A stretch of DNA of 64,000 nt from Tricharina praecox (Eukaryota). Under the pieces are notes generated by a model. The model was not told where the DNA came from. It saw nothing but the letters and a program-made list of their open reading frames with translations, and ran no database searches. Below are positions 24,721 through 42,099 of this stretch, in pieces. A program made the translations under genes and the position numbers. The stretch spans positions 124,001 through 188,000 of the forward strand of contig NW_026250439.1 of the NCBI RefSeq assembly GCF_024521635.1, written 5' to 3'. The stretch's first letter is position 1, and each line of letters begins with the position of its first letter.

Positions 24721-27541
24721 GGGCAGTTGTGGGAAAGTGGGAAAGTTTGTGCGTGTGCGCGTAGGTGCGAGTAGCTGAGGATAAACATACCAGTTGCTGT
24801 GAGATCGCGCAGGGATTTATTATTGGAGACGGGTGGCGATGATGGTGATGGTGGTGTAGAGAAAGACGGTGGTTGATGTTGGTTGTGGTGATGTTGGTGG
24901 TGTTGATGGAAGAGGGAGATGAAGGAGGAAAGAAAGCTGGCGTTGACATAGGCGACCGGAGCGGCGAAAACTGTGAAACCAGTCACGTCCTGGACTAACC
25001 GCAAGTGAAAAGGCACAGGAGAAAAAAAGTGGGAAAAGAAATAAAAGAGGAAAGTGCAAAGAAGGAAGTGCCCTACCGCAACCGCCGACGATTTTGGCTT
25101 GGCAGAGAGCGAGCGAGCGGGGGGACGCGAGGGACAGGCAAGATGATTGCACGCCGAGGAGAGCTTTCTGGCGAGCTGCTGCGGAGAAAAGAGTCTGTCT
25201 GGTTGGACGGCCTGCAGCTCAGCGCAGCGCGCGCGGAAACATCTTTGATTGCTGGGCTGGTTGCTGGTCTCAAGCGCCGAAGATGCAGATGCGCATCTGT
25301 CTCGGGGAAAAGTTGACGAAGAGAACACAACCGCAGTCCACACCCCGGAATGGAAAAAACAGAAGGGTGGAAGGGAAGGGGATGAGGAAGCGAGAGGACA
25401 GAGACTAGAACACTCCCGATGCAGAGTCCTGCTTCTTCGGCATCATCTTTGTCTTCTCCATCGTCGGCGAGCGCGAAGGATGAAGGGTGAAGCCCTTGCA
25501 TTGCATTGCAGCGTGCTGATGTGGATGTTGTATCATACTATGTGTAGAGTATCTACCTTCATGTGGAGCAGGCGGATTGGAGCAGGTGGCAGAAGGTACT
25601 TGGTAGGCAAGTAGTTCTGCCGACGTTGATCCCCGCCGCGGCCGTGATGATTCCTGCGAATTGCCCTCACAGGTATCTTCGGCTTCCCTCCTATGGCCAT
25701 TCATCCAAGGCTATGGCCGTTGGTGCGATGGAATAATGTGCCCGGTCGTAGCCGTAGCCAAAGAAGACGACTCGGATAAACCGTATAGCACCTACTCTGC
25801 AATGCCCCACGAGCTGCTCTGTAGGTGCCACTCAGCCCAAGTGCCTGATTCTTAGAGGACAAATCATCAAGGCGGATGGGCGGGCGGGTCTCTAGTCTCC
25901 GATCTCCGACGCAGGCACCTACCATACGGACGAACAGCTTCCTTCACGTTCAGGCCAGTTAGTTCGCCATACAAGCCTACAGTCACAGTCACGTTCACTC
26001 ACATGCGGTTCGGCGGGCAGCAATTCCAAGTTGATATCGTTCAAAACGTGGTTCCTGGGTTCGACAGCCCCGGCCTTGATCCGTCAGCCACATGTACCGG
26101 TAGTCTACCACTGACGGGATAATTCTGGTTGGGTTTGGCACATTACCATCGGCATTACGATAGGAGGCTGGTTGTCGGATCGTCGTGACGGAAGGGGGGA
26201 TGACGGGACCAAACCCTGTGTCTTCGATGTGCCTTCGATTCGCATTCTTCGGGCGCTTCAAAAATAGAGTAGGCAAATAGCTACTCCGTAGTACTCGGGT
26301 GTAAGGGTAAGTGCTGCCTCACCAGTTTTTCCCCCATACAACTTAGTCACAACCACTCACTCGTTTAAGTGTATCTGGCTTACTAGTGCGCTCCCAATAC
26401 AGACTAGTGCTTCTCATTCGTAATGGTGGTGAGGCACCGCTTATTGGCAGCTCCTGGTACATAGATCGCACGGCGGGAGATGGATGATTGATTGATGATT
26501 GCCAACCACCTCAGGGGCGCAGACTTTCGGAGCACTCCTGGAGAGTGATCGTCAGCGTTCATATCGCCCGCCCACATCCGCTCGAACAGCTACCTGGTAG
26601 GTCACTTACCGGCACCCGTGCCTGCCATTCAGGGTTCCTCGTTTCGCATACCGTCGTCCATCGTCCTTCCTTCCCGTATCGATTCGATGGATTCGATAGG
26701 CAGTTTGCATTGTACCTATAGCAAGTACCGTACCTTCGTGCAGACCTCTGTGATGTCGTCGGCTGCCCGTCCAGTCATCGGCCCCAACACATGATGGAAA
26801 GTCCCCCAGTCTGCGTCTATTGCCTGCATGACTTTGCTCTTCATTCGCCTCTGGCGCACAGACTGGCCCACCACTAAACCATCCAGTCCGCTCCTCGCCT
26901 TCACCATTCGAGGGCGCCAAACTGGCCACTGAACTGAGCCTCGCTTCGCCTCGCCTCACTCCCACCACTCCCACCTCCACCTCCACCACCACCACCACCT
27001 CCACCTCCACCACTGCCCATCATTCCCCAACACCCACCCCCCAATTACTCACCTGCATTCGAGACCACCCCCCCGTCCGTCCGTCATCGCATTCCTCCAA
27101 ACCACCTCTCCACTCCCAAAAAAAATCCACCTCAAACCCTCCGCCCCTCCTCCTCTTCTCCCTCCCCCCCCTCCTCCACCCACCTCCGTCTCTCTTGCCG
27201 CACCGCCACCTTTCATCTCCTCCATTCTCCCTTTCCCGACCCCCCTACTGCGTCACGGTCCAAAGTCTCTTTTGGCTTCTCCGCTTTACTTTCTTCGCAA
27301 ACTACTCCTTTGCCATTCGATCGTTCGTCGCTTCTTCAGAAAAAATAACTGCAGCTGGTCTGGCTTCTGTTCTCTTACCCCTTCGACTTCGTCGATACGT
27401 ACATCCCTTTTTAGCCTTCGTTACCACAACCGCTTGCAAGCGATCCCTCCCCCTCCCCCCTCCACCAGCAGTCGTCGGGACGCCCCCCCATCTCCAAACT
27501 CCTGAACTTCCCTGACCTCTGCGCCCTCAATTTCATCATCC

Positions 27542-30229: not shown

Positions 30230-32110
30230 CTCCCGTGGTAGGGCGTGGTGTGGATTTCGTGAGGGAACTCACTGCCAACTGATAGAGGTATTAGCTCAGT
30301 GCTGCGTTCCAGGAGTCATTGGTCCCTGGGTTCCCCATGAGTCTGTATCGGTGATCTAAGTATCATCCTCCGTCGACCACCAGCGACCATGCTGCTCGAC
30401 TACAGTGTTGACCAGCCATTCCATCCCACCTTACCTCGACCAGCACTGGTCCGCATATCCCGAGGGAGCGAACGGATGCCCATAACTGAACGATTTTCAC
30501 GGTCCGTAGCACTTCGGAGTCCGGACCGATTACCTACGGATGTAGCTTACTCACTCACACGTAATCAGTCGTCATTGCATCACGAGGTCGCATCGGCTTG
30601 CCTATTCGGGCTCGCGAATAGTTAATCGATCAGCAGCGTTTCAGATGATGGATGGTGTGGGTTGCGCGGGAGAGGCTGGAGCTGGCGGAAAGATCACTGG
30701 GCTCAGCCGCTCAGCGGGATGAGTTAGAGTGGGGAGTGGGGTCTGTACCAGGTAGGTGGTAGTAGGTACTAACTCTACTCTTGCAAACAATGCATAATCT
30801 CCCGTGTCTGGCCTGGTGAGAACGTGGTGGTGGTGGTGGTGGATGTGATAGGGTGGATGGGATATGTAGATGGGATATGTAGATGGGTACGTCGCCTGGT
30901 TGATGTCGTGAGTGGATCTCCGTCCAATTGATGGAGGTATTGGCTCCGTGCTGCGTTAAAGAGAGAGAAAGATCTTCCTTTTTATTTCGCGTGCAACCTA
31001 TCTAGACTATGGCAAACCGTCGCACTCCTTTCCTGCCCACTCTGGCCGGCCGAGGGTTGCGACCCCGTTACCAGCCAGCACGATGTGGCGCCGCTGCCTG
31101 CCTGCCAAACAAATAACAAAAGTAATAGCACCACGAGAATATTACCGCATATCCTCATCTCCTACTTCCTCGCACCGGCCGCAGACACAGTACCCTGCTG
31201 GGAACTCTTGCTCTGCTCCCAATGCGATGCTTGCCTCCTCCTCCTCCTCCTCCAGGTCTGGTGGAGCTTTCCTCCCCACATCCGTCGTTCTTAGAAACTC
31301 TAGGATTGCCTCGCTGCACCGCTCGTCGGCGAACAAGCTATCGACCACCTCTCTTTCCTTCTCTCCGTCTCCTTCCCAACCTTTGCCCACAAGGCTTTCT
31401 GTTGACTTCTCCACCGTGAGTAGTTTTTGAACAGGTGTTCGCGTGATTGCTTGGTAGGCCTATTGTCCGTGCTGCGTTATAGGAATGTCATCGGTCTCTG
31501 GGTTCCCTCATCGGTCTCTGGGTTCCCTCATCGGTCTCTGGGCTCCCTCATCGGTGATCTACTAAGTACATACTATGTATCATCTCTCCCATCGGCCATC
31601 GGCCATCCGCGACCACCCATCCTGCACGCCTACCTACCGTACACAGTTGACCAGCCACCCCGCCCCGCCCTGCCTGACCGGCACCGATCCGAATATCTCG
31701 AGAGTCGAGGGAGTAAAAGGAAGCCCGCGGCTGATCAATTTCTAGCTCAGCGAGTACGTACGTGCGGATGCAGCTTACTCACTCACTCACGCACGCACTC
31801 ACGCACGCGTAATCACTCGTCGTCTCATCTTGGTGTCGCATCGGTTTGCCTATTCGGGCGCGTGGAGAGGAGAGGCGTGAAGGGGGAGGCGAGAGGCGGG
31901 AGGATATACGGTACGGTAGGTACTTGATCGGTCGGCAGTATTCAAGTGAATGGATGGTGTGGGTTGCGCTGTGGGTTGCGCTGGGTTGCAAGGCGTGTTC
32001 CGCGTGAGAGCCGGGAGTTGGGTGGAAGCTGAGCGGAGCTGGGTGAAAAGATCACTGGGCTCAGCGGGCTCAGCGGGATGAGTTAGAGTGGGGAATGGGG
32101 AGTGTACCAG
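30230..32110. repeat. Tandem duplication (~550-650 bp unit), second copy interrupted by a LINE
   Basis: 30270-30307 matches 30920-30957; 30300-30755 matches 31468-32112 (both end GATCACTGGGCTCAGC.G.CTCAGCGGGATGAGTTAGAGTGGGGA). Confidence 0.8.
30959..31465 (-). mobile_element. 5'-truncated LINE (Tad1-like) with 14-bp target-site duplication
   Basis: TSD TCCGTGCTGCGTTA at 30945-30958 and 31466-31479; encodes ORF2 C-terminus QSREHLFKN...LFADERCSEAILEFLRTTDVGR. Confidence 0.88.
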
Positions 32111-32729
32111 GTACATACCGCTTTGTTTTTGGTTTAATCATTGATTGCATGCTACCTAACTAAATCGTAGCACTATACACTGAAGTCATTCAGCAATGGC
32201 TAAGTCTATAGTGTATAGGCTATATTCTAATAACGATAAAACAGAAAGAAAAAACAGTTACACGCAACAGCCTAGGGAAACGCACGTGCGGGCTTGTAGT
32301 AGTCCCTATGCTTGATTTGTATCACATGGAGGAAGCCATTAAGACAAGGTGACTCATTTGTGACGATAGGCGTGAGACTTCCACTTCATGTGAAGACTGA
32401 ACCCCCCTTCTCACATAGATGTTCAGCTTTGTGGCGGTGGGAGCTCTTCAGCGATGTAGAAGCCGACGATTCCTCTGTGCGTACTTTTGTCAAGCGGATC
32501 TGAGCAAACGAGTGAGAGAAAGATGGAGATGTGATTGCTAGATACAGAACAAAAAAGAGCGGACAACAGACAGTATTTAAAGAGATACACAGGAGCAAAA
32601 ACCAAATCCCAAGATATCCGTCCGCCCCACAATATCCGTCCGCCCCACAATATCCGTTCGTCCCATCCTATCCGTCCGTTCCCATCTTATCCGTCCGTTC
32701 CCAACTCGGTCTATTGATGCCCGAGGACA

Positions 32730-33191
32730 TTAAACCAAATCACCGACACGTACATCGAGTTGGCGACTGGCTGGTGCCGGATGGTCCGGAGTATCGGTGT
32801 CGACAACCATTGAGAAGGAGCCGAACAACCAGACCTTGGAAGAGGCGGTGCTTGAGCGGTGTGGGGCGTTGTAATTCAACTTGAGGAACATCTGTCAGGC
32901 GGCCACCACGAAAACAATGAAGATGAAGCTCACGATCAGGTTAAAGATGAGCGTCGTTTGGTCGGAGGCGCTGCAGTAGCTGAAGTGAGGCACTTTAACT
33001 ACCACAATGCCAAAAAGAGCGTCGAGCAGCATCGTCACCAGCACAAAGCCAGCGAAGAGCCGAGTCATGGTGAAAAGTGGCTGCATTTGTGTATTCGGTA
33101 CTGTAGGTTTGCTGACGGAGTTTTGCGGGAGTCGAGGCTGGTTAAAAGGCGTGGAGGTGAGAAAGTGTCTGTTGGGGATCGGCGTGATCAT
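32730..33191 (-). pseudogene. Possible two-TM protein gene with in-frame TGA
   Basis: Two hydrophobic segments (LFAGFVLVTMLLDALFGIVVV; LIFNLIVSFIFIVFVVAA), TGA at 32897-32895, frame open a further 54 codons to TAA 32730; start uncertain. Confidence 0.3.
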
Positions 33192-34236
33192 TGATGTAGC
33201 GGGTGAGAATGTGGATGCTGCTGTGTGGGCGGCAAACGAGAAGCAGGGTCACAGAAGTGCGCTGTCGAGCAACCTAAAACGTGGAGTTGCTGCTTTCTCG
33301 GTGTGCAAGCCACCCACCCCGCTTTGCCGCTACCTAGGTAGGTAGGCACCGACTCTGCTCGCACAAATATTCCATCATCTCCCCAATCCCCCAGTCCGAA
33401 CGTGATGGCTTAGTACCTATGGCTCGTCTGTTTCAGCCCCGAGCTGAAAATCACGCTCAGCCAAACCTCTGACTCTATTTGTCCTTTCCATTCGGTGACG
33501 ACTTGGTGAGCTGTGAGCACGTGGTAGTAGTGGAGGGGATGATGCGTAGACTAGACGAATAGACGAGGAAGAGGAAGGACGATTTGGAGAGGAAGGATGA
33601 TTTAAAGAGGGGAGACCAGCGTCCGAGGCCTGGGTCCTGGGATGGGTTGCTCATCCGCGCAGTACTCGACCGAAGGTTGTCTATCACGAAGTACAGTGAG
33701 CTGTGTTTCCGCTGCCCGGAAGTCGCATCTATCCATTTATCACCATCCATCACGAAACCAACTTGAGAGTCGAGAGGGCCAGAGCGGATTGATTACGCAA
33801 AGGATGGCTGGCTGGCTTTACTATTGTAGATGGGTAGAAGCTACCTCGCTGGTGGATAGTGGATTGTCACGTGGAAGGAAGTACCTTGGCATTTCGACTG
33901 GCCGCCTCCCCAGAGAAAGGGTGCGAGAGATTTTGCCATTGCCCCGCAAGAATTCCTGTTCTATGTATGACGCTGAACTAGGTACACTAACTTCTGCACG
34001 TGCTTTGTCTGGTCTGAGTTCTGCGTGATATCTGATGAAGACGCTCTGAAGGGTTGCTGCTAGTGAATCCTGATACGGCGACCAGCAGCATCGCTTTCGC
34101 TCTTAAACAATCACCTTCGACCCTCCTACATCTTCTCTCCTACAACACACAACCCTCCTCTACCACAACACCCCAACCCTCTACCACAAGACTTTCTCTC
34201 CACATCTCCCCACACAACCCCACCCCAAGGCCCACC

Positions 34237-36050: not shown

Positions 36051-36854
36051 GGGCGGGCACGGCTACATACGAAGCCGATGATGGGAACTGCTAGGAGTCT
36101 AGAGTCTAGGACCTTAACGATCAGAAGAAGAGGCATGAGTGAGCCGTAGCGGGTGGCACCCAGGAGCAAGGAGCAAGGAGTAAGGAGCAACGGCTGGTCT
36201 TCCATGTGGCCTTCTCCATCCCCGCGTACAGCAAAGACCGCTGGGCTGCACCGGGTATTTATAACTGTGGCTGTTTCAGATTTCTGAAGAGCAACATTTC
36301 AACTCACTGGATACGTAGAATTCACTAAACGAACTGCAAACTTCCGGCAAAGTGTTCATGTCCGTGCTCGGGCCATGATTACGTGTAATACGGTATCGGA
36401 GTTATGATTCGTGTGCAGATAAGACGTCTCAAACGACAAAAGGTGATAACGTTTTGCACGCCTCGCACCAAAACACTTGAGCCACAATCAGGATCAAAAA
36501 ACTACCTCATATTACATATCACATTCAGGCGCATCAGACCTGTTCAAAGTATCTCGCAATAGAGACAGCAATTTTCTCATTTTCAACGATTGCAGTGCCG
36601 CAGCGAGTGATATCGCATGAACTCCTTCGGATGCCTGGCACTTCTCATCGAAGAGCTTCGGGCTGGCTATTAGGCGTGTTCGAATATAGGGTTTATTCGA
36701 TTACACGGAGCGGCGGAGCAAAAGGATATACGCGCAAACCTCAAATACGGATGTCACAGAGAAATGACACTCGATTAAAAACCGCGGAAAGCACCGCCTG
36801 CGCTTTATGGGGCATCATCTAATAACGTCGAATACAATGATTATCAAACAAAAC

Positions 36855-36910
36855 GGCAAATGTTTAAAATGCCATGGTTTTCGGCCTGAATTTTAAAATA
36901 CCATGGTGTC
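36855..36910 (+). mobile_element. Possible solitary Mutator-like terminal repeat
   Basis: GGCAAATG followed by two copies of TTTAAAATRCCATGGT; no partner end found in the window. Confidence 0.3.
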
Positions 36911-38062
36911 AGGGATAGGTCTTTTTGGGTACGCCACCGCCAGCTGCTGGTACTGCTTTGCAAGGTCATTGATGTATAATTATACGAGAACGAACTGCTC
37001 CATTATATTGCTATGTTTCTAGCTACTACTGCTGCTCGCCCGGGATATATATCCCCCCCTCCGTGCCTACGCGGGCGGAACCCCGCCTTCCCCACTCTCC
37101 GCGCCTTCCGCGCCCTCCGCGCTCTCCGGGCGCCCCGCCGGACAGCCCAAATGAAAGGCCCCAAGGAAGTGCCCAGTTTGAGCTGGACTGCCTCGATGTT
37201 TGCCCTTGGCTTCGTATCTCTCCGCAAAGAATTGGATTTTGCTAAAATCAAAGTAATTTTCAAAGTGCGGATCAAAGCCAAATAGGCCCGAGACATCAAC
37301 AGTGACCATCCATACCAACCCATCCACACCGACGCAAAACCACCGAGGTCCGACACTTGAACGCCGACACTACACTGATCCGCCAGTTTAACCTGGATAA
37401 CTGGTTGATTATCCAGGTTAGACTGAAAACCTATTTTCGATTGCGCCGGAAACTGGCCAGAACAGTATCATCGAAGGGAAACAGACTGCAGTGCTTGCTC
37501 TCAGTAGTTGATGGTTTACTGTTCGACTCCAGTTTCGCGCGGTGGAGACCTCGGGGTTCTCCACGGAGAGTATTCTGGCACAGATTGATACCGACGAACG
37601 CCGCTATCCAGAAGTGCCAGAATACTCTCCTTGTTATATTGCCAGATCAAGCTGGCCTCGCGGGGCCCCCCCCCCACACCTCCACCCAAGTACTTCCCGA
37701 GTACTTGTTGACAGCTGGCCACGTATGGCCATTAGGAAAGGGGTGCAAGGCACCCCGATCCGATGCTGGGTGCGGGAGATGGAAAGATCCATGGCAGTCA
37801 CTACTGCCTGGCCGCCCGCGGCCGGCCCCCGGACCGGTCGACGGAGGGTATTATTCTCGTGGACGCGCACATGGTGTAATCGTAGTTCTGGTAACCCACC
37901 GGTGGCACTCTGCTGAGCCGTCTGCTGCTCGGCGATAGGCACTTTACCACTTCGGTGGCATCACCCTCGGAATAGTCACTATCCGAGGGTGGGTATACGC
38001 GGGGAATCACTTACGCGTAGAAGGGGATGTTTGGAAGACCGGAAGACGGCCAGCCGTCGTAG

Positions 38063-38150
38063 GTTTGGCAATCTTGTCGAACTCGTCGAGGCAAATTATT
38101 CCAATTTCTGCCCTCCTAACATCATGGTTCGCGGCTACCAGTAGCCGCGA
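38063..38150 (-). pseudogene. Isolated ClpX-like AAA+ fragment (Walker B region)
   Basis: Translates SRLLVAANHDVRRAEIGIICLDEFDKIAKP, matching the ClpX/Mcx1 pattern LL.AA..DV..A..GII.LDE.DKIA; no other ClpX sequence seen nearby. Confidence 0.7.
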
Positions 38151-38204
38151 ACCGCCAGGTCGCGGCGCACCCTGAGATCAGGGTGCACTTTGGTCGAGTA
38201 AACC

Positions 38205-39925
38205 CTGCCGGTCCGGCCGGCAACATCTGTTGGGGAGCTGCTGGGAGATCTCTCCGAGCAGCAGTTAAGAGTGGCGTCGCCGCCACCCCCAACGGGCCGG
38301 CAAAATCTTGCTCGAGCTGCTCGGAGGTCTCTCCGAGCAGCAGTCACGGGTGACGTCCCCGCCACCTTCATTGGGCCGGCAACATGTTGCCGGGCTGCTC
38401 GGAGATAACTCCGAATCGCAGTCAAAGGTGGCGAGGTGGGGTGGGCGGTTCGCGATCTGCGCGTCGCGCCGGCGCTTATGCTGATCGATAAGAAGTTCGG
38501 CCATCTGCGCCAGGCAGGCTGATGTGTTTCCGGAGAGATGCATCAAGGGATCGGTTGATGAAACACTCCTCGTCGAGTTGGCGGTCTCTGGCGGAAATTG
38601 GTTGTGGTAATTTAAGTAGAAAGCCACGTCGCGTGGAAGGTGAGCCGACTCTTGAGAATTGACCAGGCTATAGGTCGAAGCCGTCCGTCTTAGTGAGGCA
38701 GTGGGAGAGGTCGGATGAGTCGGTGTCGGTAGTAGTCAAAGGCGGCGTCGCCGCCGCCTTCAACGAGCCGGCAACATCGGTTGTCGGGGTGTGGCGTCAC
38801 CGCCACTCTCAACGGGCCGGCAACATCTGTTTGGCAGCCACCAGCAGCCGGTGCACCGACTGGTCCACATCCTCACCGACACGGTGCGGTGCGGTTCTTG
38901 TCGTTGGTGCACATCTCGCAAACCCACATGTTCGCGCTCCTCATCTCTCCGACACCAGGCCCGGCAACACAGCTAGCTGGTCGACTTGCTGCTGCAGCCT
39001 CCCCTAACAGCAACCAAAGGTGGCGTCGCCGACACCTCCAACGGGCCAGCAACATGGGTTGCTTGGCTTGAGAGGTCTCTCCGAGCAGTAGTCGAGGTCC
39101 AGCAACATCGGTTACCGGGCTGCTCGGGGTCACTCGGAGAAGCACTCGAAGTAGCGGGCCGGCAACATGTGTTGTCGGCCTGCTCGGAGGTCTCCCCGAG
39201 CAGGAGTCAAAGGCGGCGTCGCCGCCGCCTTCAACGGCCGCCAACGACGAGCCGGCAACACAGTAAGTTGGTTGACTTGCTGCTGAAGAAAGAATAAGAG
39301 TAGCGATTCCGCTTGATAACGGTGCTAGCCAAACGAACGGTGTCATGGGCGGGCCCAGCGACAAGATTGGTTCCTTCGAAGCGGTCTGCTGAATTGCTAG
39401 ACGAGACGGATACGGCGTCGTCCGGAGACAGTGGTTTGGAGGTAGCCTTTGGTTCCGCATCCATGCTTCCCCTCTTTCGAGTACCACCGACAGAGGCAAT
39501 GACTTCTCCACCTTTGTGCCACCGCACCCCGCGACCTTCCACGCGCCGGCAACAACGTTGCGCGGCTGCGCGGCTGCTTGGCTGCTCGGAGGTCTCTCCG
39601 AGCAGCAGTCGGTGGAACCAGCGTCAGCTGCACCGCCATCTTCAAGCGGCCGGCAACATTTGTCGACGCCCTGGTCGGAATCTGTGACTTCGACTAGCCT
39701 CAACGGGCCGGCAACATTAGTTGCTGGCCCCCCGAAGAGCAGCCAAGGTGGCAGTGCCGTTCTCCTGGCGTTCAACTTGCCGCCAACACGTGGTGTGTTG
39801 GGCTTTTCGCAGGTCTCTGCGAGCAGCAGCCCATGGGAGCTTCGGGTTCGGCATCGGCGCCGCCACAAGCGACTGTGGCTGCGAACTGCTCCGGTATGGT
39901 GTTCGGAGGTCTCTCCGGAACGCAA
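38205..39925. repeat. Array of degenerate ~79-nt units, each made of three adjacent hairpins
   Basis: GCCGGCAACA-like motif at about 13 sites (38215, 38294, 38373 spaced 79 nt); CTGCTCGGAG-GTCT-CTCCGAGCAG at ~38316 and ~39582 plus variants; AAGGCGGCG-TCGC-CGCCGCCTT at 38739 and 39210. Confidence 0.88.
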
Positions 39926-41252
39926 CAAGGTAGGCGGCTTTTTCATAGCCTTTGGCGCACACAGCAAAAATTGCTTGTGGAGAATGTAGTAGGCAGCCAC
40001 ATGATATTCGACGCTTCCATTCTGAAGAAAAGAATATCAGTATGGCTTGGCCATAAGTAGCGATGGTGGTAGGAATCACTTACGTGTTGGAGACGAATCT
40101 CCTTTTAGCAGCTGCACACTGCGGTGCAGTGGCCGGTGGGGTGTCAAAAAAACAAACTCCCACCGGCAACGGGTTGAAAGAAACCCCAGAAAACCTCCCT
40201 ATCGAAAAGGGGCCTCATCGCGGACAACAATGTATTGTTGACGGTAACCGCGACGGCGATGGTGTCGCCGACGGTATGCTTGATGTTGTCGACACGATCC
40301 TTGATGGTGTCGACGGGAGACTTGATGGTGTCTTCTCCGGTTTTCGTGATGTCCCCTGCAGTCGGTGCTGCTTGGTTGCCGCACCGGCAGGAGCGGCAAA
40401 CATTGCCTAGGGGTAGGCGGAGCTCCACAATGTCAGTGGAATGGCTTCTGAAGAAAATAATATTAGTATCTATGACTAGGCTATGAGCAGAGAAGACGGG
40501 AGTAATCACTTACGCAGCCTTGGTGGTCTTCATGTTGGCATGAACCGGCGCCCGCACCAGATTCCCGCACCAGAATTCCTTGCCCCCGCGACACAAATCT
40601 TTTGCATGTTAGTAGCCACACTGAAGGAGGAGGTGTTATCCTACACACGATCCCTTGAGACCAAGCTCTTTTCGAATCGAAAGCAAAGTGCGGGACTATT
40701 GCAAGTCAGTACTATAAACACGATGAAGGAGATTGGGATTATCTTACACTCGAGAATGACCAAGTGATCTTGGATATTTGTGATATTAGAAGTGAAGAGA
40801 GAAAGTGAAGAGAAGAAGAGAAGAAGTGGAGGACGAAGAGGTTGAATTTATAACAAAATCTACGCCAGAACACACGGACCACCACGGCAGGCGAGCCCTA
40901 AGTCTACGTTTGCGACTCCGCTGGGGATAACCCTCTTCGCAATCGCAATTCAAAATTGAAATGTGTGAGAAGTGGGCAGGTTATACCCCATGAACCGCCT
41001 CGTAGATTCACTCACTATCTTGCACTCGCTTTGAAGTTGTCTCCCGGGTGCTGGTAATTACAGATCCTGGTCATCCATTGCAGCAACCCCCACTGCAACC
41101 CCCCGCTCTCACCTTCACCATAGACACGGTTGCTTTGAATCAATGCAAAAGAAGTCACCGTCGCATCGCCTCGGCCGCTGCCGCTTCACAGGTTAACTGC
41201 CGAGTCCCGACCGGCAGGCTCCGAAATCCCGACCGGCAGGCTCCGAAATCCC

Positions 41253-41492
41253 GGGCCGTATCCACCTACCTCTAAGTGTTAGACCTCTACAGTCTATATA
41301 GAGTCTACGACACAGGCACGCACAACCTCCCGCACCACCTCCGCAGTAATAAACATAGAGTGTATAGTATCGTCGTGTATGTTTGGTCTAACACTTAGAG
41401 GTAGGTGTATACGGGCCGACTAGACCTCCAAGTGTTAGACCAACCGGCATATATCGGCCCGTGTACACCTACCTCTAAGTGTTAGATCAACC
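41253..41492. repeat. MITE-like inverted repeat with extra copies
   Basis: CACCTACCTCTAAGTGTTAGACC (41263-41285) perfectly inverted at 41385-41407; further direct copies at ~41424 and ~41465. Confidence 0.8.
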
Positions 41493-41782
41493 GGGTGGTG
41501 GAAGGCAGCCGTCAGCCGATAGTACATCACGAGCTCGATTATCACGGGCCCACGGCGTACATCAATCCGCTCCTCCCGGAGTGCCCTCTCCGCATATCCC
41601 TTTTCCGGCTCTTCTAGACACTCTGCAGAATCAGAGACAGCCAGAGGTACTGGAAGTTCACACTGCACAGTACATGAGAGATATTTCTGGTATTTGTGCT
41701 ACGTATATTCGAGCCACCTATATTCGATATGATATACAGTACAATACTACAATACTACAATCAAAAACAAAGAATCCAAACT

Positions 41783-42099
41783 CCGCCGAGGTGTATCAGT
41801 GAATCCTCAAAGTGTACAAGCAAAAAAAAAACAGAGACAGAGATCAACGCCCGCCGAGGTGTATGAGTGAATCATGCCTGCCGCCCCGCCGCCCCGCCGC
41901 CAATCAATACAACACTACAATCAAAAAGTCAAAACAAAGTCCAAACTCCGCCGAGGTGTATGAGTGAATCCCCCAAGTGTACAGACAAAAAACAAAAACA
42001 AAAACAAAACTCCCGCCGAGGTGTATGAGTGAATCCCGCCTGCCCGCCTGCCCGCCTATAAAACAAAAACCAACGCCCGCCGAGGTGTATCAGTGAATC
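41783..42099. repeat. Five copies of a 23-nt motif with variable spacers
   Basis: CCGCCGAGGTGTATSAGTGAATC at 41783, 41851, 41948, 42013, 42077. Confidence 0.95.

Follow-up and report, generated by a model that had tools for sequence, protein, structure and literature searches.

A hairpin-rich locus in Tricharina praecox as a possible transposon-derived mosaic of captured exon pieces

A cluster of short palindromes in the genome of Tricharina praecox raises the question of whether such an arrangement represents a structured RNA, a coding repeat or a product of mobile DNA. The window analyzed here, a stretch of 64,000 nt, corresponds to positions 124001-188000 of one contig in a 38.4-Mb, 104-contig assembly. 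Its neighboring genes encode Spa2, Ssu72, proline dehydrogenase and fungal DUF domains, and named homologs of the window genes belong to Tricharina, Sphaerosporella, Geopyxis, Wilcoxina and Pyronema, as expected of a cup fungus (Pezizomycetes). An earlier note, made from the sequence alone, had described positions 38205-39925 as an array of triple-hairpin units of about 79 nt and favored a structured nucleic acid. Three short palindromes, here termed A, B and C, do recur at 38215-39925; the description of the two loops, AT at 38384 and ATTA at 39716, holds, as does that of the paired T-A/C-G variant of C. The picture of an array proved accurate for only part of the region. Tandem repeat analysis with TRF confines the 79-nt period to 38215-38425 (2.7 copies, 78% matches), and only three whole A-B-C units were found, at 38215, 38294 and 39157, the remaining units being partial or reordered. 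A mismatch-tolerant scan of 37900-40100 recovered the 5' arm of hairpin A 15 times and hairpins B and C eight times each, two of the C copies being degenerate. Read on the minus strand, a tandem cluster of 79-nt units in the order B, A, C occupies 38215-38433, partial units (C, A, C, A) lie at 38735-38830, further partial copies accompany the third whole unit (39157-39235) within 38959-39260, and degenerate units with A and B copies extend over 39544-39925. Start-to-start spacing of the repeats ranges from 49 to 387 nt and more, and the order of the motifs varies.

The folding of these units exceeds what is expected by chance. Positions 38205-38430 gave z-scores of -7.35 on the minus strand and -6.67 on the plus strand, and none of 200 shuffles folded as well; 13 stems of at least 7 bp occur within 36.2-41.0 kb (2.7 per kb), compared with 20 in the other 59.2 kb of the window (0.34 per kb). 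The claim that each unit is almost wholly palindromic was nevertheless too strong for hairpin A, in which 14 copies (one of the 15 being left out) carry 6 mismatches in 140 nt on the 5' arm vs 47 in 140 on the 3' arm. Hairpin A conserves the sequence of one arm instead of its stem, and an 18-nt motif located there is nearly invariant over the 14 copies. Among the copies of hairpin B, one G-C to C-G double change was observed, which lies beyond what CpG decay can produce. Hairpin C, read on the minus strand, forms a 13-bp stem with a GNRA loop in all six full copies, and its G-U cells outnumber its C-A cells by 16 to 3 (7 vs 3 distinct column states); strand bias of this kind is absent from hairpins A and B. 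Covariation among the units was not significant, as the scores of C and B were matched by 63 and 32 of 500 shuffles, respectively, in alignments of low power with 5 and 7 distinct rows. RNAalifold recovered 4 pairs from 10 partial units, a low number owing to gaps in the alignment.

Searches for relatives of the hairpins were conducted at several scales. No Rfam family matched the window at its gathering score, and five sub-threshold matches obtained in E-value mode for 36.2-41.6 kb were read as hairpin shape; no tRNA was detected. Neither hairpin B nor the whole unit matched elsewhere in the host genome, and local alignment of one unit to 14 loci gave no convincing source. The 18-nt A motif, with up to three mismatches, has 34 matches in the host genome, nine of them inside the array, compared with 16 for a reversed control; matches beyond the array are read as chance. 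The exact hairpin-B pattern was found 0 times in JGI metagenomes and 0 times in IMG/VR, collections from which near-identical genomes may be absent. The earlier preference for nucleic-acid structure therefore holds insofar as folding matters at this locus and does not extend to a conserved structured-RNA family. A long non-coding RNA maintained by the host could still be envisaged, in which a spliced minus-strand transcript would present hairpin C and the A motif as repeated protein-binding sites, with the exon pieces described below as passengers. Such an RNA would account for the G-U bias and GNRA loops of C, the double change in B and the near-invariance of the A motif. We nonetheless consider it improbable, given that covariation is no better than in shuffles, that A and B lack strand bias, that whole-cluster z-scores are alike on both strands and that no relative was found beyond the locus. 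With stems of 9-13 bp, A, B and C are too short for a milRNA duplex of 21-25 nt. Only a long hairpin at 37562-37633 (minus strand; z = -8.7, and -6.9 on the plus strand), with 35-nt arms, 17 perfect pairs, a pre-miRNA-like shape and no donor found, offers a stem of sufficient length.

The DNA between the hairpins was decisive for the interpretation of the locus. The clusters had been described as separated by unique DNA; in fact, 404 nt within 38205-39925 are copies of host exons. Altogether, nine pieces of 36-198 nt, totaling 774 nt and lying at 37232-39534, are copies from seven unlinked host genes located on six further contigs. Their identity to the donor exons is 78-94%, none being identical to its donor, and all are in the sense orientation on the minus strand, an arrangement with a chance probability of 0.5^7 = 0.008 for seven donors. 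Four control stretches totaling 5,534 nt contained no exon piece. No donor was found for the spacers 37465-38065, 38425-38605 and 39830-40460 or for four ORFs, in searches with a word-based first step that can miss older pieces.

Several of the donor genes could be assigned from their domains. The piece at 37232-37267 (94% over 36 nt; L027, contig C35) derives from an exon of an LSH/DDM1-type helicase with SNF2 and Helicase_C domains, whose best PDB matches are DDM1 and HELLS (194 bits vs 157 for BRG1). It is followed at 37270-37467 by the 3' end and 3' UTR of an unknown gene (78% over 203 columns; L016, contig C25), in which a 17-bp hairpin at 37384-37425 is stronger than that of the donor. 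A ClpX gene, assigned from its AAA_2 and ClpB_D2-small domains (L006, contig C8), contributed piece a at 38062-38162 (83%), with a perfect 12-13 bp hairpin (38126-38153) that is absent from the donor, and piece b at 38822-38881 (85%), which overlaps piece a by 46 donor nt. The piece at 38165-38215 (91% over 46 nt, 38170-38215; L007, contig C17) comes from a chromodomain-protein gene with PF00385 and HP1-type PDB matches, and that at 38599-38728 (84%; L002, contig C25) from an exon of a fungal-specific transcription factor gene that scores at about the cut-off for PF11951. A PHD-finger exon piece at 38887-38957 (89%; L003, contig C29) originates from a gene with PHD, Myb/SANT and zf-HC5HC2H domains, which we take to be Snt2-like from its domain order; PMC9508808 lists SntB among the readers of chromatin. 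Finally, two colinear pieces at 39310-39378 (83%; L004, contig C1) and 39472-39534 (84%; L004/L005) derive from a DNMT1-RFD (RFTS)-like gene, which encodes a C-terminal zinc finger, scores 21.8 bits for PF12047 against a cut-off of 22 and has two homologs carrying PF12047. Raf2 is described as bearing an RFTS-like domain (PMC10135481) and DIM-7 as a distant homolog of Raf2 (PMC2973830), and the domain match suggests that this donor may be Raf2/DIM-7-like, with a putative role in heterochromatin.

Four of the seven donors (LSH/DDM1, Snt2-like, RFTS-like and chromodomain) are chromatin proteins, and none is an Argonaute or Dicer. Chromatin genes are expected to make up a few per cent of genes, and the proportion among the donors lies far above this, for a category that was picked after the fact. 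ClpX and the RFTS-like gene were each captured twice. The chromodomain donor and the RFTS-like gene have only two to three homologs each among 5.8 billion proteins, which indicates that both evolve fast; one named protein is 70% identical to 37% of the chromodomain donor and lacks the chromodomain. Outside the nine pieces counted here, a 58-nt stretch at 36277-36334 matches, at 88%, non-coding DNA upstream of an SH3-domain gene on contig C83 and may represent a further captured piece.

A single-copy locus composed of bits of other loci could in principle be an artifact of assembly. Such a chimera would be expected to carry its donors at 100% identity, as opposed to the range observed. Of the words sampled from 36500-41500, fractions of 0.93 and 0.69 are present in sequencing runs of two studies, one of which may underlie the assembly; four of the six run entries, with less than half of these words each, are not counted as evidence, and no RNA run was among the entries. 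We regard an assembly chimera as barely credible.

The junctions and the folding of the pieces offer insights into how they may have been joined. Microhomology was found at two junctions, 5 nt between the Snt2-like piece and ClpX piece b and 6 nt between ClpX piece b and hairpin A; the remaining ends of the nine pieces show a partial match or none. ClpX piece a and the unknown-gene piece fold better than their donors and better than nearly all of 300 matched random donor mutants, which carried the same substitution types as the captured copy, the fraction of mutants folding as well being 0.000-0.017 in all eight tests, which used RNA or DNA parameters on either strand. Within their BLAST boundaries, the remaining seven pieces showed no folding gain. 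At the junction, the hairpin of the chromodomain piece reaches beyond the BLAST boundary and lengthened from 5 to 10 bp (-19.3 kcal/mol in the copy vs -10.1 kcal/mol in the donor), bringing to three the pieces in which the copy forms a better hairpin than the donor. The changes that perfect the hairpin in ClpX piece a alternate between its arms, so that at least two switching events are required.

The substitutions that separate the pieces from their donors are distributed unevenly. Across the eight coding pieces (the UTR piece being left out), synonymous changes make up 49 of 77 substitutions, and third positions account for 51, with pS of 0.38 and pN of 0.06. A neutral copy simulated beside a constrained host gene accumulated 36-46% synonymous changes, and the observed 64% was reached in 0 of 1,000 runs under each of 12 parameter sets. 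Because neutral decay does not match this bias, the pieces would either come from a sister lineage or have been conserved. Over all nine pieces, C-to-T and G-to-A changes number 35 and the reverse changes 27, an excess so slight that the divergence does not resemble RIP-like decay. In ClpX piece a, an R shared by 15 of 16 relatives is retained where the host has Q (16 of the 17 matches held the motif), and the host's I is present where all 16 relatives carry T or S. These mixed residues point to a donor close to the host lineage and yet not today's gene. Additionally, the non-coding pieces are 22-33% diverged from their paralogs, which would fit capture in a sister lineage followed by a move into the host.

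Of the 46 sites shared by the two ClpX pieces, 12 are different, as large a divergence as the pieces show from the host gene (9 and 8 of 46). Together with the repeat-spacer appearance and the ortholog-like synonymous divergence, this might suggest a memory in which palindromic repeats and pieces taken from competing or incompatible relatives guide RNAi against those relatives. Much of the a-b difference, however, goes back to the perfecting of the hairpin and to the inclusion of some 12 nt of hairpin A in the alignment of piece b. The order of the repeats and the length of the spacers are irregular, ClpX piece a has a host-specific residue, and acquisition genes are absent nearby; a memory of this kind is accordingly very improbable.

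The synonymous bias could also be taken as a trace of protein coding, either of a gene with a 26-aa repeat or of a chimeric protein assembled from captured exons. A 387-aa stop-free frame, 357 aa from the first ATG in the spliced model, is compatible with such a protein. As the earlier note had suspected, however, the 26-aa repeat of the minus strand is not maintained: the unit measures 79 nt, and the long ORF at 38876-40036 crosses the units in changing frames, belongs to no Pfam family and has one irrelevant weak match among 1.84 billion representatives. Moreover, the pieces are spread over the three frames and carry stops and indels, and the long frame contains only the Snt2-like piece. No homolog was identified; among 45 small ORFs compared with Pfam, only the ClpX piece matched, and the ESM Atlas gave no usable match for a 121-aa frame. 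We therefore attach very little credence to a protein-coding function.

The element is larger than the 38205-39925 interval first proposed and reaches from about 37.0 to 41.0 kb, with parts of transposons at both ends. Its 5' module (40695-41001, minus strand) comprises TATAAA at 40852-40847, a C/T-rich leader and a predicted 52-nt intron (40747-40696). Two paralogs of this module exist in the host genome (67-73%; L029 and L030), one of them within a 6.2-kb element with long TIRs. That element, on contig C47 (L224:883-7082), has TIRs of 165-200 nt and nested repeats and itself lies inside another repeat; a transposase domain was not found in it. Downstream of the module on the minus strand are a predicted 66-nt intron at 40448-40513 and a predicted 62-nt intron at 40022-40083 with GTAAGT, a branch site, a pyrimidine tract and CAG. 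These two introns are homologous to each other, and their common GTAAGT 5' splice site recurs a third time, downstream of both, at 38003-38014, with an uncertain 3' site. Minus-strand transcription and splicing of the element are predicted from these signals. Within a 107-aa spliced ORF ahead of the array, which has no homolog, a repeat with a 21-nt period occupies 40258-40352. At the opposite end, 36978-37129 (plus strand) is an internal piece of a dispersed, non-autonomous TIR element family of about 1.6 kb (73-77% to L017-L023 and L025). It contains a TATA-like run that points toward the array and has a C/T-rich tract after it, and may hold a plus-strand, that is, antisense, promoter. Members of this family (L017:1237-2832, L018-L025) have short imperfect TIRs flanked by TA, and these termini are missing from the window.

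Signs of a complete mobile element were sought at both borders. The longest match between 34.0-37.3 kb and 40.5-42.05 kb is 11 nt, so that no TIRs were identified, and no Helitron 3' end (hairpin, CTRR, T) occurs at either border within 33.0-42.09 kb, where the only sites are one internal (37735, with a 4-5 nt gap) and one outside (35746). A search of the host genome with PF14214 (Helitron_like_N) gave no match, and its control likewise gave none. No target-site duplication was recognized around the putative ends of the element, and a second copy was not found in the host genome. In view of the lack of TIRs, a Helitron end and a second copy, mobility and the route of transfer are suppositions. 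Around relatives of the adjacent proline dehydrogenase gene, the element was missing from all 80 metagenome loci inspected, and in the sole metagenome locus that preserves the gene order, 3.4 kb correspond to 13.3 kb of the window. Just upstream of the 5' module, 41252-41494 holds single-copy inverted repeats with 37-nt arms that are 95% complementary and an extra copy of one arm; they have no match elsewhere in the genome of the host and may be a terminus of the element. The 3' flank of the gene for proline dehydrogenase, which aligns in part with two metagenome relatives, contains several direct copies of a motif of about 25 nt at 41753-42098.

Considering these observations together, we hold with moderate confidence that the locus at about 37.0-41.0 kb is a single-copy, non-coding, transposon-derived gene-capture mosaic, produced by template switching at hairpins and originating in a sister lineage, for which no host function is needed. 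The promoter-and-intron module that heads the minus-strand unit, as seen also inside a TIR element, would represent the starting point. The hairpin cassette may then stall or break replication, and template-switch repair at short microhomologies would re-copy the A, B and C cassette in varying order and draw in 36-198 nt of unlinked exons. Template switching could further convert imperfect palindromes into perfect ones, creating new fragile sites through which the locus would keep growing. The pieces would have been taken from genes of a sister lineage and would have reached the host genome by introgression or horizontal transfer, which could account for the concentration of their differences from the host genes at synonymous sites. 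The retained introns point to DNA-level events as opposed to the retrocopying of spliced RNA. We propose that only sense pieces survive because antisense pieces would silence needed genes. Cross-talk of siRNA or methylation onto the donor genes is likely a side effect of the mosaic; silencing cross-talk of captured fragments onto donor genes is reported for maize (10.1101/777037).

Precedents for the individual steps are described elsewhere: template switching homogenizes the arms of inverted repeats (PMC3820800, PMC8604942), and, combined with microhomology, it fills single-copy Pack-TIRs (PMC8277862). The transposon parts at both ends, the clean control stretches and the absence from the loci of relatives also argue for a capture mosaic. 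Despite this support, neutral capture does not predict the chromatin proteins among the donors, the one conserved arm of A, or the GNRA loops and G-U bias of C. The mosaic is further weakened by the fact that clear microhomology was found at only two junctions and that seven of the nine pieces show no folding gain.

The prevalence of chromatin genes among the donors instead recalls a selected anti-silencing decoy. A selfish fungal element could have built a multi-target RNA decoy against LSH/DDM1, Snt2-like, Raf2/DIM-7-like (RFTS-like) and chromodomain genes by serial capture at self-made hairpins. Its transcripts from both ends would form dsRNA that is diced into siRNAs, and these would lower the mRNAs of the four chromatin genes to the benefit of the transposons from which the element arose. 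The copies would be held to their targets as drift or escape altered synonymous sites of the host; the synonymous bias would then reflect host escape from a conserved guide, or the decoy would have arrived ready-made from a sister species. The repeated hits on two of the donors, the low pN of the pieces and the intact appearance of the splice signals agree with this scenario, and the minus-strand module at 40.85 kb and the plus-strand promoter-like piece at 37.05 kb may face each other. A host Argonaute pathway is present, with eight Piwi matches at four loci, seven of them over the cut-off, and telomeric elements of Drosophila provide a precedent (PMC7785250, PMC13534243). However, all pieces are in the sense orientation, so that an antisense transcript has to be assumed, three of the donors are non-silencing genes, and the chromatin category itself was chosen post hoc. 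The LSH homolog of Neurospora is reported to be dispensable for DNA methylation (PMC4714748) and targeting in Drosophila failed at about 80% identity (PMC13534243), a level to be set against the 78-89% of seven of the nine pieces here. Furthermore, the host ClpX protein changes no faster in its captured part (2 of 37 conserved columns vs 28 of 200), and there is only one copy, without a transposase to benefit. We therefore consider the decoy rather unlikely, though the main alternative to the mosaic.

Comparison with known systems places the capture mosaic near, though not within, several classes of element. Like Pack-TIRs and Pack-MULEs as described in PMC8277862, the locus combines pieces of host genes with transposon-derived DNA, is present in a single copy and shows microhomology at two junctions. 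It differs in that neither flanking TIRs nor a target duplication were found and in that its pieces, 36-198 nt long and of ortholog-like divergence, are interleaved with a self-amplified hairpin cassette; moreover, its seven donors are all on other contigs, whereas single-copy Pack-TIRs of animals favor nearby donors. The hAT-borne transduplication of histone H3 in Pyrenophora tritici-repentis is another instance of a chromatin gene as fungal cargo (PMC3538342). Helitrons likewise capture exon pieces serially and carry hairpins (PMC5148889; for maize, 10.1101/777037), although the canonical 3' hairpin-plus-CTRR end (termini as given in PMC5148889) is missing at both borders here and no asymmetric inverted repeat was seen. 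On sequence grounds, the locus would thus work like a Pack-type capture element while belonging neither to the Pack-TIRs, for want of TIRs, nor to the Helitrons, for want of the end motif. Pieces captured by Helitrons tend to share one orientation, as do those of the fungal locus. Routes of gene capture are reviewed in PMC13317346.

The telomeric retrotransposons of Drosophila, with their fragments of nxf2, aub or piwi, resemble the locus in that they carry short pieces from genes for chromatin or silencing, took up one gene repeatedly and amplified internally; their captured pieces are given as 140-235 bp at 76-95% identity (PMC7785250, PMC13534243). The fungal locus differs from them in having no ORF, one copy, retained introns and several donors, and the only donor tested, ClpX, evolves no faster where it was captured. 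In quasi-palindrome template switching, imperfect inverted-repeat arms become identical in the copy (PMC3820800, PMC8604942), as in the captured pieces; here, three such pieces lie side by side, with changes on both arms. In contrast to CRISPR-like arrays, the locus has neither a constant repeat nor a regular spacer length. A literature search that covered few subscription journals returned no report of a fungal locus combining many donors with interleaved hairpin cassettes and perfected hairpins.

The capture of gene fragments is well documented for plants and flies and thinly for fungi. With serial capture, hairpin amplification and hairpin perfection readable against known donors at one locus, the mechanism of capture becomes directly testable. 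Should its small RNAs reach the four chromatin donors, the locus would be a fungal counterpart of TART-A with several simultaneous targets. An origin of the pieces in a sister species would make it a compact marker for the transfer of DNA among soil cup fungi.

Elsewhere in the window, a high-copy dispersed repeat of about 500 nt at 30960-31466 is 75-93% identical to many loci of the host genome (40 of 276 candidates scored). Positions 32119-33332 are duplicated at 194.4-195.4 kb of the same contig (83-89%), with a dispersed repeat of about 260 nt in the middle. Additionally, two short blocks at 26291-26366, which have no tRNA or Rfam match, are 90-97% identical to a metagenome locus (L082) and possibly represent a small conserved RNA.
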